A stretch of DNA of 64,000 nt, from NCBI RefSeq assembly GCF_050175855.1, contig NZ_JBFXIO010000001.1, forward strand, positions 3,471 to 67,470, written 5' to 3'. The translations under genes were made by a program, and so were the position numbers. This document shows, in pieces, positions 14,540 to 58,185 of this stretch. This DNA is from Piscinibacter sp. (GTDB taxonomy: Bacteria > Pseudomonadota > Gammaproteobacteria > Burkholderiales > Burkholderiaceae_C). Under the pieces are notes generated by a model. The model saw only the letters and a program-made list of their open reading frames with translations. It had not been told where the DNA came from and did no database searches. Positions within the stretch are counted from its first letter, which is position 1, and every line of letters begins with the position of its first letter.

Positions 14540-14568
14540 TGTCACGGATCGGCGATCTCCTGCGTCGA
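14540..14568 (+). promoter_or_regulatory. ECF-type promoter variant TGTCAC-N17-CGTCGA
   Basis: Same spacing as the TGTAA-N17-CGTC family; 54 bp upstream of the 14623 ORF. Confidence 0.5.
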
Positions 14569-14622
14569 ATACGAGCAGTCGTCTGGGCGGATGGCTGCTC
14601 AACCGTTTTTCAGGAGCCGACG

Positions 14623-15294
14623 ATGAACCCGTCTACGAACGCATGGAGCGGACGACCGCCATTCCGCCAAACCGCAATTGCCGCGGCAGGTCGCGCGGGT
14701 ATCCGCTCGAGAGTGATGCAACTGGGCTTCATCGCGGCGCTGATTGGTGGTGCGCTCGTCTCACAGACCCACGCCGCCACGGCCGCGGCGGGTGCAGACC
14801 TGGTAGGGCAGGTCGCGGGCTATTCGGCGGATGTGGCCAATGAGGAGGGCTACTGGTACTCCCGCTACAGCATGATGACGCTCACGATGCAAAGTGGGCT
14901 GGGGACGACCATTCCCATGGACGCCGCGCTCATGTCCATGATGCAGCAGATGATGACCGCCGTCGGTGCCACGCCGGACGATCCGGTGATGCCGCCCGTC
15001 AACCCGAGGCTGCTCCTGACCATCCACGCTGGCGGCGATCCGCACTATGTGAGCGAGCCAAATCAGGCTGATTTCGCCACGCTGGCATGGGCCGGCGGCC
15101 CTTCGACGCTGACGACCGAGGCCACGGCGATGACGATCGCCAAGGAACTCGAATGGGCGAAGCTCTTTCACCGCAACGAGCACTTCGGTCAGGCGCAGGT
15201 CGACCGGTTCGGTTCGACCCAGCGCTTCGTGGGCATGCTGCTCGCGGCGATGCCCAAGATGCAGCTCCAGGCCTATCTCGCGGCACAGGCCTGA
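14623..15294 (+). CDS. Hypothetical Met-rich exported protein, possibly truncated
   Basis: CAGGAG RBS; hydrophobic signal-like segment; EEGYWYSRYSMM and MSMMQQMM. Confidence 0.65.
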   Translation: MNPSTNAWSGRPPFRQTAIAAAGRAGIRSRVMQLGFIAALIGGALVSQTHAATAAAGADLVGQVAGYSADVANEEGYWYSRYSMMTLTMQSGLGTTIPMDAALMSMMQQMMTAVGATPDDPVMPPVNPRLLLTIHAGGDPHYVSEPNQADFATLAWAGGPSTLTTEATAMTIAKELEWAKLFHRNEHFGQAQVDRFGSTQRFVGMLLAAMPKMQLQAYLAAQA

Positions 15295-15336
15295 ACCGAG
15301 AACGGAAGTACTCGCGGCCGCGGCAGCGGCCGCCTG

Positions 15337-15561
15337 TCAGCGTGGCGGCACTGGCGATGCGGGTTCGTCGAGTTCGAGTCCATTCGACAACATCTCTGCC
15401 GAGGCGGCATGCACGGCCCCGATCTGCTCTGCCACGTTGCTGCAGTTGCGGCACATCGACAGGTGCAGCCTCAGCCTCATCTCGTCGATCAGCCCCAGGG
15501 GCTCGTCGAGTCGTTGCGACAGGAGTTCGGCCACGCGTTTGCACGAGTACATCAGGTTCAT
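15337..15561 (-). CDS. zf-HC2 anti-sigma factor
   Basis: SCKRVAELLS...LRLHLSMCRNC (HxxxCxxC); ATGA-coupled to the sigma gene. Confidence 0.85.
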   Translation of the reverse strand: MNLMYSCKRVAELLSQRLDEPLGLIDEMRLRLHLSMCRNCSNVAEQIGAVHAASAEMLSNGLELDEPASPVPPR

Positions 15562-16199
15562 GTGCTTGCCCTCTTGCCGATCCAGTCGCGCTGCATGCAA
15601 TCGCGCAAGGACATCCTGGCGCGGTGAAGAATTGTCCGGCAGTTCTCGGCGCTGACGCCCAGCCGTTCGCAGATTTCCGCGGTCTCGAAGCCCAGCCACT
15701 CGCGCATCATGAACACGCGGCCCGCCTGTCGCGGCAGGCAGCTCACGCAGCGCTCCAGCACGGTCATCATCTGTCGCTGTTCGGCGCGGTTGTCAGGCTG
15801 CTGCCAGGCCGGAATCGGCTCGACGTACGCTCCGTCGGCGTCGTACAGGGCATCGATGGCCTCGTCGTTGCTTCCGGCGTCGGCGTTGAAGTAGACGACA
15901 CGCTTTCGGCCGGGAGAGCGGTACCAGTCCGCGACCTTGTTCTTCAGGATGGCCGTGGCCCAGGTAAGCAGCGATGAGTCGCCACGGCGTGTCGCGTGTT
16001 GTTCCACGACGACCATCAAGGTGTCCTGCACCAGATCTTCCGCCAGCCCGTCATCGTGCATCGCATAGCGCGCATGTCGGACGAGACGAACTCGCAGGGC
16101 AGGCAGCTGCGTTTCCAGGCCGGCGGCGTCGGCAGCAACCCTTGCCGCGCCCCTTGGGGCCGCTCCCGCGTCCTGCGGCTCAGCGTGAATGTGGGCCAT
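15558..16199 (-). CDS. ECF sigma-70 factor (TIGR02943-like)
   Basis: AEDLVQDTL, TWATAILKNKVADWYR, VFMMREWLGFETAEIC, LHRARMSLR. Confidence 0.9.
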   Translation of the reverse strand: MAHIHAEPQDAGAAPRGAARVAADAAGLETQLPALRVRLVRHARYAMHDDGLAEDLVQDTLMVVVEQHATRRGDSSLLTWATAILKNKVADWYRSPGRKRVVYFNADAGSNDEAIDALYDADGAYVEPIPAWQQPDNRAEQRQMMTVLERCVSCLPRQAGRVFMMREWLGFETAEICERLGVSAENCRTILHRARMSLRDCMQRDWIGKRAST

Positions 16200-16218
16200 C
16201 CTGAGCCTCCTTGGGTTG

Positions 16219-17307
16219 CTAGGGGACGATGGGCGGGCGCACTTCGGCGCAGCCCGCCTCGGTGCAGTGGGTCAAGGGCATCGGCATCTGCGTGCGTCGC
16301 ATCAGCCACAGCACCATCGCGATGCCGCCCAGCATGGCCGCATAGGCACCCATCGCTTGCAGGGCCAGCGTCGGCAGGGCATTGAGCAAGAGCGTGTCGT
16401 TGCCGCCGGGGACCATGGCCGCACCGGCGCCCATCAGCATGCCGCCTCCTGTGTGGCGCACCCACGCGAGAGCTTCCTGGGGACGGCGCCAGGCGATCGA
16501 GCCGCGCTGCATCGCGGACAGCACCATCCCCAGAACCAGGGCAATGACGAGGGAAGAGTGCGTGATTTCGGGTGCACGGCCGCCCCACCCGGCGTGCAGG
16601 ACGCTGGTGCGCAAATGGTTGGTATACGACCACGCCCCTTGTGTCGCGTAGAGGGCGCCGCCGGCCAGCCCCAACAGTGCGGCCGCCACCGTCAGGTGGT
16701 AGCGCGGTGCCAGCAGGCGATCGCGGACCGACGTGGACGGCGAGCTTTGTGCAAGCCGCCACAGCGTCAGCAGCCGCATCATGGCCCACAGCCCCAGCGC
16801 GACAAGCAGCCACGGCGCAAGCGCCGGCCAGCGCGCCCAGACTGTCGGCACCGCCATCAGCTCGCCTGGCATCAAGACCCCGGGGTGGGTCCGCAACACC
16901 GCCTGCGATACGGCCCACAGCGCCACGCCCAACGCAAACCCGACCAGCGTCGCCAGCATGCCGAGTTCGCCATCGGCCAGGCGATGCAGGGTGGACAACG
17001 AACAACCCCCATTGAGCGCTGCGCCGACGCCGAAGAGCCAGCCACCCGCGAGGGCCCAGGCCGCGGGAGTCGGCATCGAAACCGGGGGCAAGCTGCGGCC
17101 GGCCACCAGCGACAGTACCCCGGCGAGCAGGGCCATCCACAAGGCGGCCTGCATCAGGCTGCCGAGCATGTGGGTGGTGCCGCTGGTCATGATCTCGGCT
17201 ACGGCACGTACGTTGCACAGGCTGGCCCGGTGGGCTGCAAAGCCGACCAGCGCCGCGCAGACCAGGGCGAGGGCGAAGTCGAGCATCGGGGCGGCGGACG
17301 GCGTCAT
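16219..17307 (-). CDS. YeeE/YedE (thiosulfate transporter-type) membrane protein
   Basis: GFAAHRASLC, GAALNGGCSLSTL, GAAMVPGGND motifs; many TM segments. Confidence 0.85.
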   Translation of the reverse strand: MTPSAAPMLDFALALVCAALVGFAAHRASLCNVRAVAEIMTSGTTHMLGSLMQAALWMALLAGVLSLVAGRSLPPVSMPTPAAWALAGGWLFGVGAALNGGCSLSTLHRLADGELGMLATLVGFALGVALWAVSQAVLRTHPGVLMPGELMAVPTVWARWPALAPWLLVALGLWAMMRLLTLWRLAQSSPSTSVRDRLLAPRYHLTVAAALLGLAGGALYATQGAWSYTNHLRTSVLHAGWGGRAPEITHSSLVIALVLGMVLSAMQRGSIAWRRPQEALAWVRHTGGGMLMGAGAAMVPGGNDTLLLNALPTLALQAMGAYAAMLGGIAMVLWLMRRTQMPMPLTHCTEAGCAEVRPPIVP

Positions 17308-17329
17308 GGTGAGCTTCGCGGTGACGCCG

Positions 17330-18277
17330 CTACGGAGCGCGCAGCACGTCGGTACGAGGATAGAAGGCCACCCAGGCAAACCAGAAGGACAGGGTGCCGG
17401 TCAGCGCCTTGCCCTGGGCGTCGAAGGCCTCCGCGGTGCGGTTCGCGCGGTCGTAGCGGATGAGCAGTGCCTGCCCACCGAGGGTGTCGGTCATGCGGCC
17501 TGCGGAGTCCACTGTCCGCTCCAGCACGCTGAAGGGGTAGGCCTTGGCCGCGCCGTTGACGCGCAAGCCGAGCACCCATTCCTTGAGCGGAAGGCGTCCG
17601 TCGCGGTGCTGCACATCGAACAACAGTTGCTGCACGCGGTCGTAGCCGGCGTAGGGGTCGCGACCATAGTCGCGCTCGAAGCCGGTGTCGGTGGACAGGA
17701 CCTCGGTGGCCGGGTGCCGTCTTCGCCAGTCGGCCCAGGTCGTGTGCGTCAAGGGCACAGCAGTCAGCGTTGTCCCGACGAGCGGGCCGCTGATCGCCGC
17801 GGACAGGATTTGCGACCACAACGACTGGGTGGTGTGGTCGTACAGCAGCACGTCGCTGTTGTAGAGCAGTCCCGACACACCGAAGCCCGAGACGCCAGTG
17901 CTTGCAGGAGGCTCGAAGGCCATGCCGGTGCCGCACAGAGGGCAGTAGGTCACGACGATGGCACGCGTGCCGAACCGATCGTTCACCACCTCGTGCCAGT
18001 TCAGAATGCGCAGGGGGTATGCGCGAGTGATGCCATCAAGCGTGATGCCCAGCACACGGTCCTCTTCGGCCAGCCTGGCGCGGGTAGCAGAGACGAACTT
18101 TGGTCTGTCGATGGCGGGGATGCCGTCTTTCGGTGGGCCACCGCGCTCGATGGCCTGGATGGGGATCGACGCGCCCGCCAGATCGAACCCATTGAGCACC
18201 GGCCCGGCACTGACCATCTGCATTGCGCTTGCCGATGCGAGGGCAACCAGAAGCGGGGCCAGACGGCGGCGATTCAT
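17330..18277 (-). CDS. DUF3179 domain (seleno)protein family, exported
   Basis: GGPPKDGIPAIDRPKF, RAYPLRILNWHEVVND, TYCPLCGTG, SGLLYNSD, SFWFAW. Confidence 0.88.
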   Translation of the reverse strand: MNRRRLAPLLVALASASAMQMVSAGPVLNGFDLAGASIPIQAIERGGPPKDGIPAIDRPKFVSATRARLAEEDRVLGITLDGITRAYPLRILNWHEVVNDRFGTRAIVVTYCPLCGTGMAFEPPASTGVSGFGVSGLLYNSDVLLYDHTTQSLWSQILSAAISGPLVGTTLTAVPLTHTTWADWRRRHPATEVLSTDTGFERDYGRDPYAGYDRVQQLLFDVQHRDGRLPLKEWVLGLRVNGAAKAYPFSVLERTVDSAGRMTDTLGGQALLIRYDRANRTAEAFDAQGKALTGTLSFWFAWVAFYPRTDVLRAP

Positions 18278-18383
18278 GAGCGTGGCGCTTTGCGGTGAGT
18301 TGGCGACGAGGCCCCGGGCGTGAAACGCTGGGCGCTGCAAGTGCTGCGTTCTGCTCACGACCCGGGCCTACCCCGTCGTCCAT

Positions 18384-18448: not shown

Positions 18449-19618
18449 TCAGATCGGGGTGTCCAGGTCGTGCACGACTAGTCCTTCCGTCGGCCCCACG
18501 GGAGCCGTCCAGGCCTGTTTCGCGAGGGTGCGTCGCGCATCGTTCAGGCCTGCCTGCCAGCGCTGTTGGATCCGTGGGACATTGAAGTCCATGTCCTTCG
18601 TGTGATCTTCGTCGGGCAAGCGGGGTGCGACCAGGCGCATCAAGTGCATGACGGTGCCGCAACCGTAACCGGCCATTTCGCGCACGTCGGACTGGGCCAG
18701 GGTTGAGGCCGGCAGCTGGCGTGTCAGCTCGCGCACGATGTGGCGCAACTGGTGGATCTGCGCCTGGCGCTGCACATGGCTGTCGACGCGGCTCGAGAAC
18801 TGGATGTCCTTCTGCCGCCCGCTCACCTGCCACATGGTCTGAGGCGCATCGCCTGCGCCTTGCCACAGCTGCACCGCAAAGACGAGCGAGTTGCGTCTCG
18901 GGTTGTCGTCGAACACGGCCTCGACCGGGGTGTTGGAGTAGATGCCGCCGTCCCAGAACAGGTCGTCGCCGATGCGCACCGCCGGAAAGGCCGGTGGTAG
19001 CGCGCCGGACGCCAGGATGTGGCGCAGGTCGAGTGGCTCGTCGCGGCTGTCGAAGTAACGCATCCGGCCCGACTTCACGTTCACCGCGCCCACCGTCAGA
19101 CGCGGCGCGCAGGCGGTCAGCAGCCCGCTGTCGACGAGGCCGGCCAGGGTGTCGCGCAGACGGGAGGTCTCGTAGTAGCCCGAGGTCTCCTCACCCAGCG
19201 CCAGGTGCGGGCTCAGCCATGCGCGGTGGTGCGGCGCGAAGAAGCCCGGCAGCCCATGGTTCATCGCACTCAGGGTCGTCCAGAACGTCGGCAGGCCCGG
19301 CAGGCCCGGCCACAGGGCAGGCAACCCCTTGTGGGCGACCTTGTCCCAGAAGGCGCGCAGCCGATCGAGCCGGCGGCCAGGCGCATTGCCCGCAATGAGC
19401 GCGGCGTTGATCGCGCCGATCGACGTGCCGATGACCCAGTCCGGCTCGACGCCGGCTTCGTGCAGGCCCTCGTAGACGCCGGCCTGGTACGCCCCCAGTG
19501 CGCCGCCGCCTTGAAGCACCAGGACCACCTGGCGATCGCCCGCCGGCTGGCATGCGTCGCCCGTGTTCGTGGCGCGTCGAGTGGCCGCGCCGGCGCTCTT
19601 GCGTTGTCGTGTGGCCAT
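18449..19618 (-). CDS. Patatin-like phospholipase/esterase (DUF3734-type C-terminus)
   Basis: LQGGGALGAYQAG, GTSIGA (GxSxG) and WDGG. Confidence 0.9.
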   Translation of the reverse strand: MATRQRKSAGAATRRATNTGDACQPAGDRQVVLVLQGGGALGAYQAGVYEGLHEAGVEPDWVIGTSIGAINAALIAGNAPGRRLDRLRAFWDKVAHKGLPALWPGLPGLPTFWTTLSAMNHGLPGFFAPHHRAWLSPHLALGEETSGYYETSRLRDTLAGLVDSGLLTACAPRLTVGAVNVKSGRMRYFDSRDEPLDLRHILASGALPPAFPAVRIGDDLFWDGGIYSNTPVEAVFDDNPRRNSLVFAVQLWQGAGDAPQTMWQVSGRQKDIQFSSRVDSHVQRQAQIHQLRHIVRELTRQLPASTLAQSDVREMAGYGCGTVMHLMRLVAPRLPDEDHTKDMDFNVPRIQQRWQAGLNDARRTLAKQAWTAPVGPTEGLVVHDLDTPI

Positions 19619-19629
19619 TTTCGTCGCTC

Positions 19630-20424
19630 CTACGTTGCCAGGTAATCGTGGATCACGCGGCCATAGGGCAGGGTGAGGTCGGCGATGAAGTGCAGGCCGC
19701 CGAGCATGCTGCGCACCGGCAGGTCGGCCACCGGGGCGTTGACGTGTGGCACGAGGTGCAGCCGGGCCGGGCCGGACCATGCGCCATGGACCTGAATGTC
19801 CGCCAACTCGTAGGCCACCAGCTGTGCGATCGCCGGCGTGCCGTCGACATGGGGGATGAGCTTGAGGTTGACCTGGGTCTTGCTCATCTTCTCGATGATC
19901 GATCCCGACGAGCAGGCCTTGCGTCCGTCGACGTCGTACAGCAGGTGCTGGTGCTTGTAGCCCATGGTGGCGATGGCCACCTGGATGCCGGCGTACTCCA
20001 GCACGCCGGTCAGCGTGTCGTGAACCACCGAGAGCTTCGGGTTGCCGTGCTTCTTCGGGAAGCCCCAGATCTCGCGGCCTCCGGCGATCGGCGGCTCGTC
20101 GTCGAGGTACATCTGGGCCGTGAAGTTCACAGGCTGCCCCTGGAACAGCGCCGGAATGACGACACCCGACTCGGTGTAGTCGCCGAAGCCGGCCGAATCG
20201 GGCATGCGGATGAATTCATACAGCACCTGGCCCGAGCCGTCGGGCTCCAGCGGGACGGGCAGAGCGGCGCGAATGGCCTCGGCGTCGCTCATGTAGGTGA
20301 CGATCAGGTATTCCCGCTGCAGGAAGCGGTAGGGGCCGCGCGGGTAGGACGGCGAGGCCATCGGCATCGACGGCAGGTCGAGCACGGACAGCGCACCGGC
20401 GGGGGTGTGGGGTGCGTTCATCAA
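19630..20424 (-). CDS. adc: Acetoacetate decarboxylase
   Basis: YPRGPYRFLQREY, GGREIWGFPKK catalytic Lys motif, DLTLPYG. Confidence 0.9.
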   Translation of the reverse strand: MMNAPHTPAGALSVLDLPSMPMASPSYPRGPYRFLQREYLIVTYMSDAEAIRAALPVPLEPDGSGQVLYEFIRMPDSAGFGDYTESGVVIPALFQGQPVNFTAQMYLDDEPPIAGGREIWGFPKKHGNPKLSVVHDTLTGVLEYAGIQVAIATMGYKHQHLLYDVDGRKACSSGSIIEKMSKTQVNLKLIPHVDGTPAIAQLVAYELADIQVHGAWSGPARLHLVPHVNAPVADLPVRSMLGGLHFIADLTLPYGRVIHDYLAT

Positions 20425-21206
20425 TGCGCCGTCCAGCCGCCGTCGATCGGCAGCACGGTGCCGGTGATCGACGCCGCCGCGTCACCGCAAAGGAAGGCGA
20501 CCAGTTGCGCCACCTCGTCGGTGGTGACGAAGCGCTTGGTGGGCTGCGCAGCCAGCAGCACGTCGCGCTTGACCTGCTCTTCGGTGATGCCGCGCGCCTT
20601 GGCCGTGTCGGGAATCTGCTTCTCCACCAGCGGCGTCAGCACGTAGCCCGGGCACACGGCATTGGCGGTGATGCCTTGCTCGGCCACCTCCAGCGCCACC
20701 GTCTTGGTGAACCCGGCGATGCCGTGCTTGGCCGCCACGTAGGCCGACTTGTACGGGCTGGCAACGAGCGCATGGGCCGAGGCGATGTTCACGATGCGGC
20801 CCCAGCGGTTGAACTTCATGTGGGGCAGGGCCAGCCGGGTAGTGTGGAAGGCCGCCGTGAGGTTGATGGCCAGAATGGCGTGCCACTTGTCCACCGGGAA
20901 TTCGTCCACTGGCGCCACATGCTGGATGCCGGCGTTGTTGACCAGCACGTCGATGCCGCCCCACTGCTGGGCTGCTCGGGCCAGCATGGTTTCGATGGCG
21001 TCCTGCCGGCCCATGTCGGCGCCGTCGTACAGCACCTTGACGCCATGCGTGTTCGCAAGACCTGCTCGAAGGTCCTCGATCGTCGCAGCGTCACCAAAGC
21101 CGTTGAGCATGATGTTCATGCCGGCGGAGGCCAGTTCGCTCGCGATGGCCAGGCCGATGCCGCTGGTCGAGCCGGTGACGAGGGCGCTTCTTCTTCGATG
21201 CTGCAT
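20421..21206 (-). CDS. bdhA: 3-hydroxybutyrate dehydrogenase (SDR)
   Basis: TGSTSGIG, NNAGIQHVAP, KSAYVAAKHG, PGYVLTPLV. Confidence 0.92.
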   Translation of the reverse strand: MQHRRRSALVTGSTSGIGLAIASELASAGMNIMLNGFGDAATIEDLRAGLANTHGVKVLYDGADMGRQDAIETMLARAAQQWGGIDVLVNNAGIQHVAPVDEFPVDKWHAILAINLTAAFHTTRLALPHMKFNRWGRIVNIASAHALVASPYKSAYVAAKHGIAGFTKTVALEVAEQGITANAVCPGYVLTPLVEKQIPDTAKARGITEEQVKRDVLLAAQPTKRFVTTDEVAQLVAFLCGDAAASITGTVLPIDGGWTAH

Positions 21207-21240
21207 GCGGTGCTCCTGCGGCGGGTGGTCCAAAAGGGGT

Positions 21241-38626: not shown

Positions 38627-39414
38627 GCGGCCGGAACCCGCGTGTCGTCGTGCCAGGCGAGTGCACGGTGGTTGAAACCCGAGGCAATGGTCGGCTTGAT
38701 CACGGCAAAGTAGGGCGAGACATCGAAGTCGCGTGGCGCGAACAGGCTGTGGTGGCGCACGTGCAGGATCTCGTCCATGCAGCCTGGGCACATCGGGTCG
38801 GTGGACGGAACGTTCTCGATAAGCGGCAGGATGGGGTAGCGCACGGACTGGAAGGCCTGGGCAATGAGGGTGGAGCAGATGGCGCGGGTCGGGTCCCCGC
38901 TGCCCAGCGACAGCATGCGGCGCCGCCAGCGCACCGGCACCGGGGGCGTCGGCAACAGGTAGCGTGCCAGATCGACGACGTTCTTCAGGTCGTACTGGTG
39001 ACCCAGGCGTGCCATCGCATGCTGGACGAGGGCATCGACCTCACTCGCGTCCAGGCCCACGGGCCGGCACACGCGGCAGTGCAGTCCGGCGTACTCGGCC
39101 ACGCTGACCAGCCGCACGCCCTCGCGCAGGTCGGCTTCGAGAAAGCAGAGTGGGCGACCGTGCGCATCCGCCCGGCCATCCGCATCGCCCACGAACAAGG
39201 CCGCGTGGGACCAGGTCGACTGGGTCAGGTACTTGATCGCCACGCTGAATCGGCTCTGGCCCTCGACGAGCAGCACATCGCCGGGCTGCAGGCAGGCCAT
39301 CAGCCGCACGGGATCCGTGGGCGCAGCCAGGCTGTGCGTGTGGTGGGTCTGGCTCAGGTAGCGGCTCAGGCGTTCGCCGAGCCAGCGGGTGATGCCGTCG
39401 AGAAGGCTTGCCAT
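38623..39414 (-). CDS. YiiX/YebB-like permuted NlpC/P60 cysteine hydrolase
   Basis: LQPGDVLLVEG, STWSHAAL, LGHQYD, ICSTLIA. Confidence 0.82.
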   Translation of the reverse strand: MASLLDGITRWLGERLSRYLSQTHHTHSLAAPTDPVRLMACLQPGDVLLVEGQSRFSVAIKYLTQSTWSHAALFVGDADGRADAHGRPLCFLEADLREGVRLVSVAEYAGLHCRVCRPVGLDASEVDALVQHAMARLGHQYDLKNVVDLARYLLPTPPVPVRWRRRMLSLGSGDPTRAICSTLIAQAFQSVRYPILPLIENVPSTDPMCPGCMDEILHVRHHSLFAPRDFDVSPYFAVIKPTIASGFNHRALAWHDDTRVPAA

Positions 39415-39439
39415 GGGGTGGATGGGGCCGCGTCGCCCT

Positions 39440-41400: not shown

Positions 41401-41412
41401 GGCGAACGCCCG

Positions 41413-44729: not shown

Positions 44730-45029
44730 ATGACCCAAACCACCCCCAAGTTGCCCGCGATCGCCCTGGCCCTGGCGCTGGGCGCCGCGTTCACGGCCTT
44801 GCCCGCCGCCGCACAGATGGCCGACAAGGACAAGTGTTTCGGCGTCGCCTTGAAGGGCAAGAACGACTGCAAGGCTGGTGCCGGCACCACCTGCGCTGGC
44901 ACGTCCAAGGTGGATCACCAAGGCAACGCCTGGTCGCTGGTCCCGAAGGGCACCTGCGAAAACACGGTCTCCAAGACCTCGCCCACAGGCTTCGGCCAAC
45001 TTGCCGAGTTCAAGGAAAAGAAGGCCTGA
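44730..45029 (+). CDS. bufA1: DUF2282 bufferin-type RiPP precursor
   Basis: Signal peptide followed by EKC-like [30 protein letters not shown] (4 Cys). Confidence 0.9.
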
Positions 45030-45065
45030 GCGGCGGACCCTGCCGAGCACCCCGAGCCGCCGCCC

Positions 45066-46004
45066 ATGTCTGCCGCTGATCAAGGCCTGCGCCACGCCAC
45101 AGTCGGCTCGCCGGCCGCGGGCGTGCGCGGCGGCGCGCCCGGCTTGCCGTGGCGCGCCGGCATTGGCCTGAAGCCGGAGCACTTCCGCGAGGTGCTGGCC
45201 ACGCGCCCGGACATCGGCTTCTTCGAGGTGCATGCCGAGAACTACATGGTCGACGGCGGGCCATTCCACCACTTTCTGGCGCGCGTGCGGGAACACTACG
45301 CGCTGTCTCTGCACGGCGTGGGCCTGTCGATCGGTGGCTCGGATCCGCTCGACGAATCGCATCTCGACCGGCTGGCCGCATTGATCGAGCGCTACCAGCC
45401 GGCTTCATTCTCCGAGCACCTGGCGTGGTCCAGCCACGGCGAGGTGTTCTACAACGACCTGCTGCCGGTGCCCTACGACCGGCAGACGCTGGCCCGCGTG
45501 TGCGAACACATCGACCGCGTGCAGGAGCGGCTCGGCCTGCGCATGCTGCTCGAGAACCCGTCGACCTACCTCGAGTTCGAGGCCTCGACGATGAGCGAGA
45601 CCGCGTTCCTGCGCGAGGTGATGAAGCGCACCGGTTGCGGGCTGCTGCTGGACGTCAACAACGTGCACGTGTCGTGCACGAACCACGGGCGCGACGCGAT
45701 GGCCTACCTGCGCGAGCTTCCTTTGGGAGCAGTGGGCGAAGTTCATCTGGCCGGTTTTGCGCGCGACCAGGACGCCGCCGGTGCGCCGCTGCTGATCGAC
45801 AGCCATGGCAGCCCGGTGGACGAGGCCGTCTGGGGCCTCTTTGCCCACGTCATCGCGCAACTCGGCGCTGTGCCGACGCTGCTCGAACGCGACAACGACG
45901 TGCCTGCCCTGCAGACGCTCCTGGCCGAAGCCGGCCGCGCCGAGGCGACGATGGGTGCGCGGGCCGAACCGCGGCGCTGTGGCCTCTACTGGGGCGGCGC
46001 ATGA
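45066..46004 (+). CDS. bufB: MNIO (DUF692) multinuclear non-heme iron oxidase
   Basis: [60 protein letters not shown]. Confidence 0.93.
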
Positions 46005-46801
46005 CAGGCGCGGCGACGCTCCCCGGCAGCCAGCGCGACTTCGCAGCTGCGCTGCTCGACCCGCAGCGCGCTGTTCCGCCGGGACTGCGCACCTGGAACG
46101 GCTCGGACCCGGCAGCGCGCCTGGCCGTGTACCGCAACAACGTCGTCAGCTCGCTGGTCGATGCGCTGGCCGACACCTTTCCGGTGGTCCAGCGACTGGT
46201 GGGCGTTGAGTTCTTCCGCGCCATGGCAGTCCTGTTCGTGCGTGAGTCGCCACCACGCTCGCAGGTGCTGGCGCACTACGGGCGCGACTTCCCAGCCTTC
46301 GTTGCCGCGTTCGAGCCGGCTCGAGGGCTGCCCTACCTGGCCGACGTGGCGCGGCTGGAGGTGGCGCGCGTGCAGGCCTATCACGCGGCCGATACGGAAT
46401 TGATCTCCGACGAGATGGTGAGCTTGGCGCTGGCCAGCGGCGAGCGCATGGGCGAGCTGCGTTTGGTGCTGCATCCCTCGGTCCATACGCTCGCGTCGCC
46501 TCATGCCGTCGTGACCTTGTGGGCGGCGCATCAGGTGGACGGTGACGACGTTGCGCAGGTCGACGTCGACGCGCCGGAGAGCGCCCTGATCCTTCGCGTG
46601 GGCCTCGAGGTGCTGGTCCTGCCTTCGGCCCTCGGGACGGTCTGTTTCGTCGAGGCCGTCCGTGAGGGCCAGAACCTGGGTGACGCTGCGGCGCGCGCCA
46701 TCACGGCCGCGCCCGGCTTCGATCTCAGCGGCACCTTGACCCAATTGCTGGCGCACGGCGCGCTGAGTGCTATCCATCTTCCACCGAGGTTGTCCTCATG
46801 A
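46001..46801 (+). CDS. DUF2063 MNIO partner protein
   Basis: [32 protein letters not shown]. Confidence 0.88.
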
Positions 46802-47346
46802 CCACGTCCGCATCGTCCACCGCCCGTGCCGGCCATCGCGCCGCCTCATCCGGCGCTTCCTCCATGGCGCGACTGATTGATGCGGCCATCGGTGTGTTCG
46901 AGCGCATCCCGCACTCGCTGATCGCGTTCATCGCGCGCTTCTCGATCGCGGCGGTCTTCTGGAATTCAGGGCAGACCAAGGTCCAGGGCTTCGTGGTCAA
47001 CCTGGTCTCCGGCGAGTTCAAGCTCGGCTGGCCGAGTCTGTCGGATTCGGCGCTGGCGCTGTTCCAGGACGAATACAAGCTGCCGTTCATTCCGCCCGAG
47101 TTCGCGGCGCCGATGGCGGCCACGGCCGAGCATCTGTTCCCGCTGTTGATCCTGATCGGCCTGGGGACGCGCTTCTCGGCCCTGGCCCTTCTGGGCATGA
47201 CCCTGGTGATCCAGCTCTTCGTCTACCCCGGCGCCTACGCGACGCACGGCACCTGGGCCGCGGTGCTCTTGGTTCTCATCGCTCGCGGGCCAGGCATGTT
47301 GTCGGTGGATCACTGGCTCGCGTCGCGCCGGGCGGCGATCCGATGA
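46798..47346 (+). CDS. DoxX family membrane protein
   Basis: FWNSGQTK, LFQDEY, EHLFPLL...GLGTR, IQLFVYP, GPGMLSVD. Confidence 0.88.
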   Translation: MTTSASSTARAGHRAASSGASSMARLIDAAIGVFERIPHSLIAFIARFSIAAVFWNSGQTKVQGFVVNLVSGEFKLGWPSLSDSALALFQDEYKLPFIPPEFAAPMAATAEHLFPLLILIGLGTRFSALALLGMTLVIQLFVYPGAYATHGTWAAVLLVLIARGPGMLSVDHWLASRRAAIR

Positions 47347-52433: not shown

Positions 52434-52727
52434 TCACCGACCGGCTGGGTCGCCGCGTTCGCCGCAACGTCGTTGTGACCGCTCGAGATCGTCCAGTTGC
52501 ATGAGCAGCGATGTGCGGTCTTCGCGTGCGACCACGCGCCAGTGGCGACCGGTCAATGCGCCTTCCAGCGCCCACAGCAGGTTCAGGCTGGCGTTCGCCC
52601 CAGAAGCCTTGACTGCGAAGTAGGCGGCGACAGCTCCGAGTGCGCGCAAGTCCTGCTCGGAGTGGATGCCCACGCCGTTCAGCATGCGGACAGACGCGGG
52701 GCCGAGATTGGCGAGCGGCTTCATCAT
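52434..52727 (-). CDS. TfoX C-terminal domain protein
   Basis: LANLGPASVRML...SLNLLWALEGAL. Confidence 0.85.
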   Translation of the reverse strand: MMKPLANLGPASVRMLNGVGIHSEQDLRALGAVAAYFAVKASGANASLNLLWALEGALTGRHWRVVAREDRTSLLMQLDDLERSQRRCGERGDPAGR

Positions 52728-53917
52728 CGCGTTGCCGGCGCGCCGGTGAGGCTGCGAGCCCGCCAGAGCGGGTAGAGCCCCACCAGGCCGAGCAGCGGAC
52801 CCGGCAACAGCAGCCAGGCGATGTGCGCACCCCAGTCACTCAGTTCGCGCGTGCCGAGGTGGATCGAGACCATGGTGATGGCGAACCCGATGGCATTCTG
52901 CAGGGCCAGTGCGCTTCCCAGCACCTCTGGCGGGCAGGCTCCGGCGGACAGTGCCGAGAAGTGAGGCGAGTCCGCCACCACGGCGCCGCCCCAGACCAGC
53001 AGCAGCCCGCCTGCAGCCCACGCGTTCCAGCCGGTGCTGACGGGATAGACCATGCAGCACAGGGCCGACACCACCAACGCAGTGGCCGCCACCCGCGCAC
53101 TGCCGATGCGCTGGCTCCACCAGCCGCCGGCCATGCAGCTGACCGCGCCGATGCCGATGACGGCGAACGACAGGCCGAACTGCGCTGGTGTGCCGGTGCC
53201 GGCCAGACCGCTCAGCACGACCATGCTGGGCACCAGGGTCCACATCGCGTACAGCTCCCACATGTGCCCGAAATAGCCCAAGGCCGAGGCCCGGAACGCC
53301 GGCACCGAGAAGGCCCGCAGCACCTGACCCAGCCGCAAGGCCGGCGCATCGCGGCGGCGCTTGAAGTGAGGACCGTCGCCGAGCCACATGACCATCAGCG
53401 CGCCGGCCAGCGCCAGCGCCGACGAGACGCCGATCGTCGCCTGCCAGGAGGTGCCCAGGCCGGACAGTCGCACACCATGCGGCAGCGCGGTGCCCAAGGT
53501 GAGCATGCCCACCAGCAAGGACAGCGCCGCGCCGGCCTGTTGCGGCACCCAGCTCACCACGAGCTTCATGCCCAGTGGGTACACGCCGGCGAGGCATACC
53601 CCGACCGCGAAGCGCAAAGGCACGCCCGAGGACATGCCGTCGGCGAGCAGCGCGAACGCTCCGTTGAAGATCGCGCCCAGCGCGGCACAGAACGCGAAGA
53701 TCCGGCTCGCTGGGAAGCGGTCGGCCAGCCCGGTCAGAGCAAAGGTCAACGTGCCGAGGATGAAGCCGGCCTGCACCGCATTCGTCAAGGCGCCGATCGC
53801 CGACGGCGCGATGCCCCAGTCGCGCACCAGATCGTCGGCCGCGCTGTTGACCGAGAACCACAGCGACGTGCCGAACAGCTGGGCGACCACGATGACAGGA
53901 ACCGGCCGCCGAAGCAT
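52724..53917 (-). CDS. MFS transporter
   Basis: LFGTSLWFS, GVCLAGVYPLGMK, GHMWELYAMW, VADSPHFSA. Confidence 0.88.
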   Translation of the reverse strand: MLRRPVPVIVVAQLFGTSLWFSVNSAADDLVRDWGIAPSAIGALTNAVQAGFILGTLTFALTGLADRFPASRIFAFCAALGAIFNGAFALLADGMSSGVPLRFAVGVCLAGVYPLGMKLVVSWVPQQAGAALSLLVGMLTLGTALPHGVRLSGLGTSWQATIGVSSALALAGALMVMWLGDGPHFKRRRDAPALRLGQVLRAFSVPAFRASALGYFGHMWELYAMWTLVPSMVVLSGLAGTGTPAQFGLSFAVIGIGAVSCMAGGWWSQRIGSARVAATALVVSALCCMVYPVSTGWNAWAAGGLLLVWGGAVVADSPHFSALSAGACPPEVLGSALALQNAIGFAITMVSIHLGTRELSDWGAHIAWLLLPGPLLGLVGLYPLWRARSLTGAPATR

Positions 53918-53943
53918 GGACGCACCTGCGGCAGGGGGTGGCG

Positions 53944-54657
53944 CTATGACCGCGAGAGCACGCGTTGCCGTAGCGCGTCGAAGTTGTCTTCGATGAAGTC
54001 GTACGCCATGTTCGGATTCGGGTCGGGCGGGCCTTCGGGCCCCCACTCATCGGGCCGCCGGACGAATGCGGTGCGAAATCCGGCCTTGTGAGCGGCGTTC
54101 AGGTCGAAGTTGTGGCACGCCACCATCAGGATCTGCGAGGGCTCGAGCGCCATCCAGCGCGCGGCGGTAGCGTAGGCCTGCGCATGCGGCTTGTAGACGC
54201 CGATCATTTCGCAGGAGATCACCGCATCCCAGGTGACGCCGTTGCGGCGCGACACATCGACCACCAACGCGGTGGGCAGCATCGTGAACGACACCACCGG
54301 GAACTTCTCGCGCAGCGCCGCCTGCGCAGCTGGAAAGTCCGGCCAGGCGTCGAGCTCGTGCCAGGCGCGCCAGAGGCGATGCCGCTCGGCGTCGTTGAAG
54401 GCGCTCAGGCCATGCTGGGCCAGCACCTCGTCGAGCGTGCGGCGGTGCACGTCGTCCATGTTGAAGCCTGGATGCTCCGTATCAGCGATGTGACCGACGA
54501 TGCCCTTCATCGCGCGCCGTCGCCAGTCGTTCGCGACGGCATCCCAGTCTAGGCTGATCGCGTGAACGGCACCGACCTGCGACAGCGCGGCGACCAGCCC
54601 GCCATGCCAGTCCAGGACGGTACCGCCGGTGTCGAATGCCAGGGCACGGATGTCCAT
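53944..54657 (-). CDS. Haloacid dehalogenase type II (HAD superfamily)
   Basis: AFDTGGTVLDW, GVYKP, MVACHNFDL. Confidence 0.88.
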   Translation of the reverse strand: MDIRALAFDTGGTVLDWHGGLVAALSQVGAVHAISLDWDAVANDWRRRAMKGIVGHIADTEHPGFNMDDVHRRTLDEVLAQHGLSAFNDAERHRLWRAWHELDAWPDFPAAQAALREKFPVVSFTMLPTALVVDVSRRNGVTWDAVISCEMIGVYKPHAQAYATAARWMALEPSQILMVACHNFDLNAAHKAGFRTAFVRRPDEWGPEGPPDPNPNMAYDFIEDNFDALRQRVLSRS

Positions 54658-54708
54658 GGGCGGTCCCCTTGTCAGTTGGTTCGTGGTTGCGCGGATCTCG
54701 CGCGCACT

Positions 54709-55656
54709 CTACCGGTCAGCGCCTGCAAGCGCCTGGGCGGGCGAGAACTTCGGCCCCTGGCTGATGCGTTGGAAGTAGGACTCCCAGGCCGGCGTGCCGG
54801 GCGGCCATTGCGCCAGGAACTCGCGCTGCCACCGGTCTGCATCGAAGCGCACCGGCAGCAGTGACACCCATGCGCCGGCCATGTGTGATTCGTGCAGCAC
54901 CGGGTGCGGCGAGGGCGTCGTCGCGATACGGGTGCACAAGCCGGACAGGTCGCCGCTGAAATTCGGCATGCCAGCCGCGCCGTTGTTCACGACGACGGCT
55001 TCTCGGCGCTCAGCGTGCCCCACCTGTCGCAGCGCCGGCAGACAGGTGTGCGTGCTGGCGAAGACGTCGACCTGTGCTGCTTCGAACACCGACTCTCGCC
55101 AAGCCGCCTGGGTTGGATCATCGAGTGCGTTCACGTCGAAGCGCCAGCCCGCGAGCGACTCGGCGTCGCCGTGCACGACGCCGACGCGGCATTCGCCGAC
55201 GCGGTAGCGCGCGACCATTGGCAATTGGGCGATGCGCTGCAGCAGCCCGCCATGGCGCCGTGCCGTCGCCTTGAGCGTCGCGTGGATCCGGTTCGAGCGC
55301 TGCACCACACCGGCATCCACGCTGTCGGGGTAGGCGCAGCCGCAGCCTGCGTCGTCCAGCTGCGCGTCGAGTTCGGCTTCGACATTGCCGAGGATCGCAT
55401 CGTTGGCCAGTACACGCAGGTTGATCTCCGCAAACGCCCGGTCGTCGACATTGAACCAGTTGAAGTCGCCGTTGAAGCACAGGGTGGGGGGCTGCGCCTC
55501 CGTGCGCGCCATCTGCTCGATGGCGTCGAGCGCGGGCACATTGCCGTAGAGCCCGCCGACGACATAGAGCGTCTGGGCTTCGCGCGTTTCGGCCGCGGCG
55601 ATGGCGCGCGGCCCGTAACGGTAGCGTAGCGGGCAGACCCGACCCGGCGTGCTCAT
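54709..55656 (-). CDS. Calcineurin-like metallophosphoesterase-fold protein (atypical)
   Basis: VVGGLYGN, FNGDFNWF, LGNVE, GCGCAYP, VHGD, STHTC, NNGAAG. Confidence 0.7.
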   Translation of the reverse strand: MSTPGRVCPLRYRYGPRAIAAAETREAQTLYVVGGLYGNVPALDAIEQMARTEAQPPTLCFNGDFNWFNVDDRAFAEINLRVLANDAILGNVEAELDAQLDDAGCGCAYPDSVDAGVVQRSNRIHATLKATARRHGGLLQRIAQLPMVARYRVGECRVGVVHGDAESLAGWRFDVNALDDPTQAAWRESVFEAAQVDVFASTHTCLPALRQVGHAERREAVVVNNGAAGMPNFSGDLSGLCTRIATTPSPHPVLHESHMAGAWVSLLPVRFDADRWQREFLAQWPPGTPAWESYFQRISQGPKFSPAQALAGADR

Positions 55657-57062
55657 GCCGCTGATCCAGCGCTCGCGACGCCAGTGCCGGCCCGGTAGCG
55701 CGGCAGCAGCAGCGGCAGGAAGAAGCCCGCGGTGCACAGGGCCAGCCCATAGAGGTTCGTGCCAAGCAGGATCGCGTACTTGCCGCTGCCGATGGCCCAG
55801 GCTGCCGGGATCAGGTTCACGGCTTGCAGCACGCCCAACACGATGCCGGGCCAGAAGGCCAGGTGGAAGGACAGCGGCGAGTATCCGACCCGGCCCGAGA
55901 ACAGGAAGATCGGCGCCAGGCCGATCACCATCGTGCCGCTGATGGTCGTGGCCTTGAGGATGTCGGTGCCGGCGATCATCGGCAGGTTGCCCAGCAGCGC
56001 AAAAGCCACCATCGTCAGCGAACCGATCGTCAAGGCCTTGGGCGACGGCAAGCGGCCGGCCAGCACCGGCAGGTCGCGTGCCACCAGTTTAGAGAGCGAC
56101 GTGAAGGTCGAGTCCAAGGTCGAACCGGCAGACGTGACCATCACCACGATCATTGCGAACCAGCCGGCGAGCCCCAATCCGCGCGCCACGTCCGCGGGCA
56201 CGTTGCCGCTGGCCGCGATGCCTTCGAGCCGCGCATGCACACCCACCAGGCTGAAGGCGAAGATCGCCACGAAGCCCAGCACGCCAGCGACGATGAAGGC
56301 GCGCAGCATGGCCTTCTCGCGCGTGATGAAGCCGCGGTCGGTCAGAACCGGGTCATGGAAGGGGTACGACAGGGTCTGCAGGAGTGCCACCAGCAGCAGG
56401 TCGCCACCCGCATCCAGTGCGAAGTGTCCTTGCGACAGCAGCACGCCGGGCGCGTGCGCCGGCAGCACGAAGGCCAGCACCACGCCCAGGAACAGGATGA
56501 ACACGACGGCCTGGATCACGTCGCTGAAGATCGAGCTGCGCAGGCCGCCCTTCAGGCTGTAGAACAGCACTGCCGCGGTGAACAGCAGTGCCGCTCCGAT
56601 GAAGCCGGCCGAGCCATTGGCACCGTAGTAGCCACCGACCACGGCGGTGTTGCTCCAGACCTCGTTGAACAGCCGCACCAGGATGGCCAGCGAGAACGCC
56701 AGTGCGGCGCCGCGGCCGTACTTGCCGATCAGGAAGGGCACCAGGCCGGTGGCTCCCTCGCGGGTGCGCAGGCGGTAGATCACCAGCCCCGCCACGGGGA
56801 TTGACAGCCAGTAGGCGGCGTAGGCCAGCCCGCCAACCACGCCGTAGGTGGCGCCCAGGTTGGCCGCATTGGTCACGGACTTGGCGAAGATCCAGCTGAT
56901 GAAGATGCTCAGCATCAGCGCCCACTCCGAGGCCGGTCTCCCCTGGTCATCGTGGCCGCGAAAGAAGCCGGCCTCGTCCTTCGAGCGCGGCACCACCAGG
57001 TACATCACGGCGCCGAAGACCAGCAGAAAGCCCCAGAAGAACAGTCCCTGCCATTCACTCAT
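55653..57062 (-). CDS. Sodium:solute symporter family protein
   Basis: About 13 TM segments; SWIFAKSVTNAA, GGLRSSIFSD, SAGSTLDS. Confidence 0.85.
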   Translation of the reverse strand: MSEWQGLFFWGFLLVFGAVMYLVVPRSKDEAGFFRGHDDQGRPASEWALMLSIFISWIFAKSVTNAANLGATYGVVGGLAYAAYWLSIPVAGLVIYRLRTREGATGLVPFLIGKYGRGAALAFSLAILVRLFNEVWSNTAVVGGYYGANGSAGFIGAALLFTAAVLFYSLKGGLRSSIFSDVIQAVVFILFLGVVLAFVLPAHAPGVLLSQGHFALDAGGDLLLVALLQTLSYPFHDPVLTDRGFITREKAMLRAFIVAGVLGFVAIFAFSLVGVHARLEGIAASGNVPADVARGLGLAGWFAMIVVMVTSAGSTLDSTFTSLSKLVARDLPVLAGRLPSPKALTIGSLTMVAFALLGNLPMIAGTDILKATTISGTMVIGLAPIFLFSGRVGYSPLSFHLAFWPGIVLGVLQAVNLIPAAWAIGSGKYAILLGTNLYGLALCTAGFFLPLLLPRYRAGTGVASAGSAA

Positions 57063-57086
57063 GTCGCGGTCCTCGAAGTCGTTGAA

Positions 57087-58085
57087 TCAGGCGCCGCAGC
57101 TCGGCGCAGAGGCGGTCGTGGCCTCGAGGGCGCCGCCGCAGCTGGAACCCTGGCCGGCGGTGCAGCCGAAGCAGTGGTCGGCCACACGGATGGGGCGGTC
57201 GTCCAAGGCTGCAGCCGTGATGTCGGAGATGTGCAGACGGGGCTTGCCCGCCTGCTGGATCGGCAGGCCCAGCTGCTGGTTGAAGTCGCAGTCGTACAGG
57301 TAACCCTGCCAGTCCACGCTCACGAGGCTCCGGCACATCACCTGTTCGAGGTTGTCGTCCCGGTGTGCGCTGCGCAGCAGGTCCATGTAGCTGTTGAACT
57401 GGCCCTTGGACACCAGCATCGAGCCGAATCGCTGGATCGGCATGTTGGCCAGCGTGAACAGCTGGTTGAAGACGACACCGAAGTGCGCCGCCAGATGCCG
57501 CTTGTAGTCGCGCTCCAGCGCCTCCTGCGGCGGAGGCAGGCTGGCGCCCTGCGGGTTGTAGACGAGGTTCAGCGTGAGGGCGCTGCCCGGCTGGCCGTAG
57601 CCGAGGGCGTTGAGCCGTTGCAGGCCCCGAATGCTCGCGTCGAAGGTGCCCTTGCCGCGCTGGCGGTCGACGTTGTCTTCCAGATAGCAGGGCATCGATG
57701 CCACCACCTCGACGCCATGCGCGGCCAGGAACTCCGCCAGGCCTTCCTGGCCGGGTTCCTCCAGGATGGTCAGGTTGCAGCGGTCGATGACCCGCACCCC
57801 TCGGGCCCGGGCGGCCACGACCAGGTCGCGGAAGTGGCGGTTGAGCTCAGGCGCGCCACCGGTCAGATCCAGGGTGCGCACGTCCGGGCTGCCGGCCAGG
57901 AAGGCGATCACCGCATCGATGGTGTCGCGCGACATCTCCTCGGTGCGGTTCGGGCCGGCGTTGACGTGGCAGTGTTGGCAGCTCTGGTTGCAGCGGTAGC
58001 CCAGGTTGATCTGCAGGGTGTCGACCGTGCGGCGACGCAGCGCCGGAAAGTCGGTGCGGAGGAGAAGGGGGAGGGTGGCGTGCAT
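57087..58085 (-). CDS. arsS: ArsS-like radical SAM / Cys-rich protein (DUF3641 C-terminus)
   Basis: QINLGYRCNQSCQHCHV (CxxxCxxC), DLTGGAPE, ASMPCY, YDCDFNQ, HCFGCTAGQGSSCGG. Confidence 0.9.
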   Translation of the reverse strand: MHATLPLLLRTDFPALRRRTVDTLQINLGYRCNQSCQHCHVNAGPNRTEEMSRDTIDAVIAFLAGSPDVRTLDLTGGAPELNRHFRDLVVAARARGVRVIDRCNLTILEEPGQEGLAEFLAAHGVEVVASMPCYLEDNVDRQRGKGTFDASIRGLQRLNALGYGQPGSALTLNLVYNPQGASLPPPQEALERDYKRHLAAHFGVVFNQLFTLANMPIQRFGSMLVSKGQFNSYMDLLRSAHRDDNLEQVMCRSLVSVDWQGYLYDCDFNQQLGLPIQQAGKPRLHISDITAAALDDRPIRVADHCFGCTAGQGSSCGGALEATTASAPSCGA

Positions 58086-58111
58086 GTCGATCCGTGGTGG
58101 CTTCCCCTTCC

Positions 58112-58139
58112 TAGACGGTCGCCGCGGCGATTCCTTACA
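58112..58139 (-). promoter_or_regulatory. ECF-type promoter TGTAAG-N16-CGTCTA
   Basis: 26 bp upstream of the arsS ATG. Confidence 0.68.
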
Positions 58140-58156
58140 GCTGGTGGAACCGTCGG

Positions 58157-58185
58157 CGTAAGAAAAATGAGGCATCGACCGTCTG
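58157..58185 (+). promoter_or_regulatory. ECF-type promoter CGTAAG-N17-CGTCTG
   Basis: Back-to-back with the site at 58112; upstream of the operon ending in the second ECF/anti-sigma pair. Confidence 0.62.

Follow-up and report, generated by a model that had tools for sequence, protein, structure and literature searches.

The DNA analysed here, which we call the window, is a 64,000-nucleotide stretch of a Piscinibacter sp. assembly (GCF_050175855.1; C1:3471-67470) in which eight transcription units of a metal-resistance island are headed by one bipartite sequence with the form of a promoter for an extracytoplasmic function (ECF) sigma factor. Two of these units end in a gene pair encoding a sigma factor of the TIGR02943 family and a small protein of the zinc-binding anti-sigma (ZAS) type. 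The source assembly (G000) comprises 5.0 Mb on 573 contigs at about 68% G+C, with an estimated completeness of 94% and contamination of 4.3%, and the nearest public relatives of the window are metagenome-assembled genomes (MAGs) of Rubrivivax/Sphaerotilaceae-type Burkholderiales. Genes were called with a codon model trained on the source genome and annotated with Pfam and NCBIfam; by these calls, about 7% of the assembly is non-coding. In the labels used below, C denotes a contig, G a genome and L a locus in a relative.

The first promoter, P1 (18382..18414, minus strand; CCTGTAATGAA-N14-CGTCCAAT; 25.2 bits against the position matrix described below), heads the sigma-1 operon (15337..18358, minus), which encodes a DUF3179 protein (17330-18358), a YeeE/Sulf_transp protein (16219-17379), ECF sigma-1 (TIGR02943; 15558-16199) and the 74-residue ZAS protein anti-sigma-1 (15337-15561). 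P2 (21239..21271, minus; CCTGTAATGAA-N14-CGTCAAAC; 24.1 bits) heads a ketone-body/lipase operon on the same strand (18449..21233). This comprises a 3-hydroxybutyrate-dehydrogenase-like short-chain dehydrogenase/reductase (SDR), whose likely ATG near 21202 is placed from the sequence and from a paralog on C305, followed by an acetoacetate decarboxylase (ADC; 19630-20424) and a patatin-like phospholipase (18449-19780). P3 (34229..34261, plus; TCTGTAAGAAA-N14-CGTCTGGT; 22.5 bits) lies directly after merR and heads a unit of unknown open reading frames (ORFs; 34336..35166, plus), namely a small ORF from ATG 34336 and a predicted secreted protein of 146 residues (34726-35166), neither with a family match in the Pfam and NCBIfam annotation. 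The small ORF has a plausible start, MMFARWQQ..., and its codon statistics change frame around 34500-34730, which suggests a frameshift or an assembly error.

P4 (43615..43647, minus; TCTGTAAGGAT-N14-CGTCTATG; 25.9 bits) heads an operon of eight genes (35216..43569, minus) separated by gaps of -20 to +49 nt. In order, these encode a MerA-like flavin disulfide reductase fused to a VTT/DedA domain, a tandem-DEP protein, a DUF547 protein, a C92 amidase, a TIGR04283 glycosyltransferase, a TIGR04282 (DUF2064) protein, a TIGR03169 'Nterm_to_SelD' oxidoreductase and an HD-GYP protein. Back-to-back with it, P5 (43654..43686, plus; GGTGTAAGCAA-N14-CGTCCATG; 23.3 bits) heads an S-methyl-5'-thioadenosine phosphorylase-family gene (MTAP; 43711..44595, plus; Pfam, and TIGR01694 at 297.8 vs 274.85 bits). 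P6 (44620..44652, plus; CCTGTAAGACC-N14-CGTCTATT; 20.5 bits) heads bufABCD, a bufferin-type operon (44730..47346, plus) for a DUF2282 precursor, an MNIO enzyme (MbnB/TglH/ChrH family), a DUF2063 protein and DoxX. The order of its Pfam domains (PF10048, PF05114, PF09836, PF07681) is that of a Bufferin (Buf1) cluster (PMC11626156, PMC12452194), and the operon may extend to 47407-47790 and a DUF6969 gene (48101-48808).

P7 (58110..58141, minus; GCTGTAAGGAA-N13-CGTCTAGG; 24.3 bits) heads the ArsS operon (52434..58085, minus), encoding the radical-SAM enzyme ArsS (TIGR04167), an SSF-like permease, a metallophosphoesterase-fold protein, a HAD hydrolase, an MFS transporter and a TfoX_C protein. Back-to-back with P7, P8 (58155..58187, plus; GGCGTAAGAAA-N14-CGTCTGAG; 22.3 bits) heads the sigma-2 operon (58301..59910, plus), in which an unknown protein of 153 residues is followed by an NrtS-like small membrane protein (58853-59056), ECF sigma-2 (TIGR02943; 59057-59701) and the 71-residue ZAS protein anti-sigma-2 (59695-59910). 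The 'arsenosugar biosynthesis' set, spread over the P7 and P4 operons, scores above its cut-offs throughout (ArsS TIGR04167 464.7/300 bits, TIGR04282 193.8/134 bits, TIGR04283 256.9/182 bits; hidden Markov model (HMM) scores); its substrate may be arsenic, selenium or something different.

The eight sites had been picked out by eye in a preliminary description of the window, and all are present, displaced by at most 2 nt. Each is intergenic by our gene calls and faces a start codon 25-115 nt downstream, and the two back-to-back pairs occupy 43615-43686 and 58110-58187. The strict pattern TGTAAK-N17-CGTC occurs six times in the window (18386-18412(-), 21243-21269(-), 34231-34257(+), 43619-43645(-), 43656-43682(+) and 44622-44648(+)) against 0.05 expected, a count reached in none of 100 shuffles; the remaining two are an N16 site at 58114-58138(-) and a CGTAAG site at 58158-58183(+). 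Across the whole assembly the strict pattern has 14 matches, 13 of them non-coding and the fourteenth, on C60, inside the over-extended 5' end of a gene call. The predicted enrichment over shuffled and coding DNA is thus borne out.

A position matrix trained exclusively on instances from other genomes leads to the same sites. Applied to the window, it retrieves exactly these eight at 20.5-25.9 bits, and the rest of the window stays at or below 12 bits. Scores over the assembly are bimodal: 16 sites reach at least 19.9 bits, all intergenic save the C60 mis-call, and the noise, mostly coding sequence, lies at or below 15.5 bits. Two intermediate matches of about 18 bits (C158 and C441) were set aside as no gene lies downstream of them. 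Apart from one orphan on C424, the assembly holds no site of at least 19 bits outside the units listed here. A ninth site that had been suggested at 14540 (TGTCAC-N17-CGTC) departs twice from the -35 core, stays under 12 bits and finds no support in the other genomes, and we reject it. A scan for sigma-70-like promoters found none in 34000-53900; in DNA of such high G+C content the terminator and promoter scan was otherwise uninformative.

Every regulon unit also has a diverged copy elsewhere in the same assembly, on C60 (1-15908), C275 (3061-5401), C337 (258-3320) or C305 (3049-5900), with 72-93% amino acid and 81-84% nucleotide identity, and each copy retains the motif. The paralogous P1 site is kept on C337, the P2 site before the paralogous operon on C305, and the P5 and P6 sites on C60, where the P4 counterpart is near-identical. 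Between arsS and the sigma-2 operon, the intergenic regions of the window and of C275 align essentially at the two -35 and two -10 blocks only. These second copies could be a true duplication or could come from a co-binned relative, given the contamination estimate; the arrangement on C60 is closer to that of locus L062 than to that of the window.

Conservation extends well beyond this genome. We compared 80 ArsS loci from other species, including Rubrivivax, Roseateles, Caldimonas, Accumulibacter, Sulfuritalea, Propionivibrio, Aromatoleum, Thiolinea, Ferrigenium and a Mariprofundaceae MAG, and defined the motif before arsS as [CT]GTAA[GT]-N16/17-CG[TA]C within 160 nt upstream. It precedes arsS in 44 of the 80 loci, typically about 55 nt before the ATG, and several further loci carry versions with one mismatch. 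In the same set it stands before the orthologous DedA-MerA-like reductase gene in 12 loci, before the first gene of sigma-2-type operons in six (L062, L063, L067, L070, L093 and L130) and before bufA in three (L060, L063 and L074). It also precedes MTAP (L130), an SDR-patatin-sigma-antisigma operon (L096) and a DUF3179-YeeE-sigma1 operon (L063). In L093, from Roseateles puraquae CCUG 52769, arsS and the sigma-2-type operon are separated by a back-to-back pair of motifs, as in the window. Moreover, in more than ten relatives from the window's own family a TIGR02943 sigma gene lies directly beside a bufferin operon headed by TGTAAG-N16/17-CGAC. The proposal that one motif joins the radical-SAM, transferase and MTAP genes, the MNIO cluster, YeeE/DUF3179 and the ketone-body genes has held up; these motif-gene pairs recur in dozens of other genomes. 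Sequence and comparison together mark the motif as a genuine, conserved promoter of ECF type.

A related observation concerns three same-genus genomes (G006-G008; loci L051-L053), in which an SDR gene (60% identical), a TIGR02943-like sigma gene and a patatin gene form one cluster. The motif is absent directly upstream of these clusters, whose operons start further up, and similarity searches found no anti-sigma gene adjoining the sigma genes. By gene content, these loci tie the ketone-body and patatin genes to the TIGR02943 sigma family independently of the motif.

The two sigma factors of the motif-headed operons belong to TIGR02943 (Sig70_famx1) by its curated cut-off of 162.2 bits (whole-protein HMM score), with 180.7 bits for sigma-1 and 240.9 bits for sigma-2. 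Of their copies, the one on C337 reaches 189.7 bits and the one on C275 244.9 bits; no further sigma factor in the genome exceeds the cut-off, so that the genome has exactly four, all of them in motif-headed operons. At 213 and 214 residues, and with Sigma70_r2 and Sigma70_r4_2 as sole domains, sigma-1 and sigma-2 have the make-up of ECF sigma factors. They are only 37% identical, yet have in common the region 4.2 helix NC(H/R)xILHRAR, which fits recognition of one common -35 element. Each sigma gene is directly followed, with an overlap of 4-7 nt, by its anti-sigma gene. The 74- and 71-residue products match PF13490 (zf-HC2) and NF052368, carry the HxxxCxxC signature (HLSMCRNC in anti-sigma-1, HLMMCTGC in anti-sigma-2) and have no membrane segment, by which they classify as ZAS proteins with putative zinc binding and redox sensing. 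PDB sequence searches with sigma-2 and anti-sigma-2 returned solely distant ECF matches or noise. Both pairs terminate operons that start with the motif, as had been noticed in the preliminary description, and the same layout, a promoter heading a sigma/anti-sigma operon as if autoregulated, recurs in the paralogs and orthologs. An assignment to ECF18 was discarded: that group is expected to have an RskA-like anti-sigma (PMC7826278) and a GCATCC / CGTAT promoter (PMC13492112, Table 4), and here we find soluble ZAS proteins of 71-74 residues and GTAAG/CGTC.

A third ECF sigma factor in the window forms a SigF-NrsF pair (48818-49998). Sites of the canonical GTAACC-N16-CGAA form, the sigmaF consensus of Caulobacter (PMC3511200), lie back-to-back at 50013-50038(-) and 50071-50096(+), facing sigF and trx-ccdA, and make up a second ECF regulon of the island, distinct from the first. 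The same pattern is also present on C60, C276, C193 and C308. On C60, moreover, an NrsF-like gene (3330-4060; 51% identical to the NrsF of the window) stands behind a sigmaF-type promoter with no adjoining sigF.

The closest described system is sigmaE-MseR of Neisseria (sigmaE, NMB2144 in N. meningitidis and NGO1944 in N. gonorrhoeae; MseR, NMB2145; PMC2893595, PMC3240639). Its promoter consensus comprises a -35 element GTMAGBWTT, a spacer of 12-13 nt and a -10 element CGTCTAAH (Hopman et al. 2010, PMC2893595), and the A that is conserved six nucleotides further on falls at the mapped start of gonococcal msrAB (PMC2893595). The operon from NMB2140 (DoxX-like) to NMB2145 is under autoregulation, with the ZAS protein MseR as its repressor (PMC2893595). 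All eight sites of the window fit this consensus, for example GTAAGGAAT-N12-CGTCTAGG and GTAAGGATC-N13-CGTCTATG, the core being -35 GTAAGGTT, N12-13 and -10 CGTCTAA in Neisseria and GTAAG(G/A)AA(T)-N12-13-CGTC(T/C)A here. Both systems place a small ZAS gene after the sigma gene, have the promoter at the head of a multigene operon (autoregulated in Neisseria, by layout here) and have an operon with doxX among their targets (NMB2140 there, the buf operon here). The likeness is one of promoter, anti-sigma type and target operon, and with the same promoter code the sigma/anti-sigma/promoter module is of a known kind.

The differences lie in scale and in targets. Neisseria has one pair and a tiny regulon (its own operon, msrAB and a small RNA), whereas the window has eight units and two diverged pairs, the assembly as a whole containing four pairs. 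The buf genes form a separate operon here and are not fused to the sigma operon, and the regulon newly takes in ArsS, the reductase/transferase operon, MTAP and the ketone-body genes. Conversely, msrA is no target here: the single msrA of the assembly (C161:9285-9839) lies 6 nt behind another gene and lacks the motif. The preliminary description took the whole regulon to be undescribed. This holds for its ArsS, reductase, MTAP and ketone-body part, which we did not find in the literature: a full-text search returned no paper tying ArsS, TIGR04167/04282/04283 or DUF3641 to a sigma factor, and the papers on bufferins name only SigF-NrsF and unspecified sigma genes. It does not hold for the promoter consensus, the small ZAS protein and the DoxX/bufferin-type target, all published for Neisseria (PMC2893595). 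What is known, then, is the promoter type; what appears new is the set of genes under it, with the ArsS pathway at the centre.

We consider it highly probable, from the sequence and its comparisons, that the eight sites are the promoters of a single ECF regulon read by the two TIGR02943/ZAS sigma factors. The motif is assigned to these pairs because of the autoregulatory layout and a phyletic association. Of 25 genomes with TGTAAG before arsS, 18 encode a TIGR02943 sigma factor that passes the cut-off, and of 25 genomes lacking the motif there, 9 do so (Fisher test, p = 0.022); for NrsF the figures are 8 and 10 of 25 (p = 0.77), so that 17 motif-bearing genomes lack NrsF. In a tree of 49 TIGR02943 members, the motif accompanies several sub-clades (ArsS-linked, buf-linked, YeeE-linked and SDR-linked), and the promoter code thus looks like a trait of the whole family.

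Several observations weigh against this assignment. The phyletic association is only moderate (72% vs 36%) and is weakened by the many incomplete MAGs among the genomes compared. In several relatives the buf-adjacent sigma gene has no motif of its own, so that autoregulation is not universal. Lastly, the sigmaF promoter and the motif agree in spacing and in the GTAA core, and hybrid sites, TGTAACC...CGACTAA, precede arsS in L090 and L095, which makes cross-recognition by sigmaF possible.

The alternative that survives best concerns the division of labour between the two pairs: one TIGR02943 sigma factor would read most or all of the sites or, as the preliminary description had it, sigma-1 would read TGTAATGAAAGC and sigma-2 TGTAAG, giving two sub-regulons. 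Of the three TGTAAT sites of the genome, two do head the sigma-1-type operons (on C1 and C337) and one heads the SDR operon; P1 and P2 have an identical 14-mer, CCTGTAATGAAAGC, and sigma-1 occupies a long separate branch of the family tree. A rule by which T-type sites are sigma-1 targets and G-type sites sigma-2 targets is nevertheless contradicted twice, since TGTAAGCAATGG stands before the closest ortholog of the sigma-1 operon (L063, with a sigma factor 75% identical) and TGTAAGGAAAAGC before the SDR-ADC-patatin operon on C305. Furthermore, the G-type site P3 also has AAAGC, and other genomes seldom have T at this position. Given L063, C305 and the common region 4.2 helix, a strict partition is unlikely and cross-activation is the default. 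We therefore regard this alternative as doubtful, and infer only provisionally which sigma factor reads which site.

A second alternative holds that SigF-NrsF (ECF16 type) reads the sites, as in Caulobacter, and that the TIGR02943 sigma factors are merely members of its regulon. SigF-NrsF lies inside the island and adjoins the buf cluster, Caulobacter sigmaF controls buf1 and buf2 (PMC11626156, PMC3511200), and the common core, the spacing and the hybrid sites described above speak in the same direction. However, the sites before sigF and trx-ccdA differ from the eight in both the -35 and the -10 element. Neither GTAACC nor CGAA, the marks of Caulobacter-type sigmaF-NrsF (ECF16) promoters, occurs in any of the eight, and the TGTAAG-type code has been published for a ZAS-controlled sigma factor and not for sigmaF (PMC2893595). 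With a distinct motif of its own in the same genome and no phyletic association of NrsF with the motif, SigF is rejected as the reader, a role we think very improbable for it.

Least credible of all is that the motif is the operator of a DNA-binding regulator: such sites can be bipartite with fixed spacing, and the island does encode MerR-family and other metal regulators, but the motif is asymmetric and always gene-facing, 25-115 nt from the start codon, its -35/-10 geometry and CGTC -10 block are typical of ECF promoters, it matches a consensus that predicts the start site mapped in Neisseria (PMC2893595), and its back-to-back pairs are two oriented copies and not palindromes.

The two ECF systems may be arranged differently in other lineages. 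In L055, from a same-order relative (G058:C2; sites at 7855-7881(+), 9815-9841(-) and 9893-9918(-)), sigF stands behind tandem TGTAAG-type and GTAACC-type promoters, and a TIGR02943-like sigma gene stands behind GTAACC-N16-CGAA. The two systems seem to be cross-wired there.

If the eight units are indeed one regulon under the TIGR02943/ZAS pairs, its operation might be pictured as follows. In the unstressed cell each anti-sigma would hold its co-transcribed sigma factor. Attack on the zinc-cysteine site by a thiol-reactive signal, for example an oxidant, electrophile or soft metal(loid), would free the sigma factor, as RsrA and MseR suggest by analogy; the soluble Zn-Cys nature of the anti-sigma points to a cytoplasmic trigger. 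The freed sigma factor would direct RNA polymerase to (T)GTAAG(G/A)AA-N12-13-CGTC(T/C)A, and transcription would be expected to begin, as it does in Neisseria, some 6 nt past the 8-nt -10 block. Its targets would be both sigma operons, giving positive feedback and probably cross-activation between the pairs, together with the ArsS operon, the DedA-MerA-like reductase/transferase operon, MTAP, the bufferin operon, SDR-ADC-patatin and one unknown unit.

Both the inducing signal and the chemistry of the output are inferred here from the kinds of protein encoded. These include a periplasmic metal-chelating ribosomally synthesised and post-translationally modified peptide, a membrane-anchored flavin disulfide reductase, YeeE and a radical-SAM enzyme whose cyanobacterial counterpart adenosylates a metalloid, as well as a 5'-substituted-adenosine phosphorylase, two transferases, a phosphoesterase and permeases. 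The regulon units are placed among mer, cus and sigmaF genes, and this fits an inducible defence against soft metal(loid)s and thiol stress.

More broadly, and tentatively, a TIGR02943/ZAS sigma factor may be the conserved master switch of the ArsS, DedA-MerA-like, TIGR04282-04283 and MTAP set across the Betaproteobacteria. The so-called arsenosugar pathway might then really be an inducible defence, deployed with bufferins against thiol-reactive soft metal(loid)s (As, Se, Cu and Hg). Through the promoter code common to the two sigma/anti-sigma pairs, two different signals would converge on this one regulon, which would be cross-wired with sigmaF-NrsF. ArsS-type enzymes and their partner transferases occur in thousands of genomes and are named for a cyanobacterial step in arsenosugar synthesis, yet their role is mostly obscure. 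A zinc-thiol sensor that switches the ArsS set on alongside an operon for a copper-binding peptide and a disulfide reductase anchored in the membrane would give them a concrete physiological context. It would also expand a sigma regulon that is regarded as tiny in Neisseria. The sites provide a clean promoter code for annotating the regulon in betaproteobacterial genomes, and two ECF families, sigmaF-NrsF and the ZAS type, appear to divide or share the same targets across lineages.

Other known systems resemble this one in part. The thiol-stress pairs SigR-RsrA of Streptomyces and SigH-RshA of mycobacteria likewise have a soluble HxxxCxxC ZAS protein and thiol-redox outputs, represented here by flavin disulfide reductases and the YeeE sulfur-transport-family protein, and their autoregulation is matched here by the operon layout. 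They belong, however, to another ECF group with another promoter, the SigR/SigH-type promoter being GGAAT-N18-GTT, and their targets are thioredoxin or mycothiol genes where the window has metal(loid) and peptide-chelator genes. Caulobacter sigmaF-NrsF (Kohler et al. 2012, PMC3511200; PMC11626156) is also a metal-stress ECF system driving DUF2282-MNIO-DUF2063-DoxX operons, with the GTAA core and spacing in common. In contrast, its sigma factor is of another family (25% identity), its anti-sigma is the membrane protein NrsF and not a soluble ZAS, and its promoter is GTAACC/CGAA and not GTAAGG/CGTC. In the source genome, sigmaF appears to retain only its own operon and trx-ccdA.

Cupriavidus metallidurans RpoQ-RsqA, beside gigPABT (PMC13492112), is likewise betaproteobacterial and set among metal-resistance genes, and its ECF sigma gene is divergent from a bufferin-type operon. 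Unlike the pairs described here, RpoQ belongs to ECF16 and has a membrane anti-sigma, its promoter was not identified and dependence of gig on RpoQ was not demonstrated (PMC13492112); on its ECF16 membership and missing promoter, we rejected it as the closest system. Separately, the ECF16 consensus in Table 4 of that study (-35 AATTCG, -10 GGTTAC) is the reverse complement of Caulobacter sigmaF GTAACC-N16-CGAA(TT). This reversal is a possible reason for the failure to find an RpoQ promoter before rpoQ or gig.

A few further features deserve mention. The metallophosphoesterase-fold protein of the ArsS operon (54709-55656, minus) has no match in Pfam, NCBIfam or PDB sequences, and its fold was recognised from an AlphaFold2 model (pLDDT 86; Foldseek top match SapH Ap4A hydrolase 3qfm, E 6e-10). 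It is conserved, with invariant GD, GN-E and HGD blocks. The P4 operon contains genes for an HD-GYP phosphodiesterase (35216-36151, minus) and the tandem-DEP protein (40306-41400, minus), and a HAMP-GGDEF-EAL gene (21323-23542, plus) diverges from P2. Their presence suggests that the stress response may have a cyclic diguanylate (c-di-GMP) output.

In many relatives (L033, L035, L036 and L039-L049), the TIGR02943 sigma gene contains TGTAAGGAACTGGGC...CGAC within the region-4 coding sequence for C-K-E-L-G-I-T, which may be a chance match to the pattern or else an internal promoter serving the anti-sigma gene; in the window, neither sigma gene contains it. Finally, the orphan site of the source assembly (C424:2658-2690, plus; 19.9 bits) points into a convergent rlpA-like gene from its 3' end and is a possible small RNA or antisense promoter; Neisseria sigmaE also drives a small RNA (PMC3240639).

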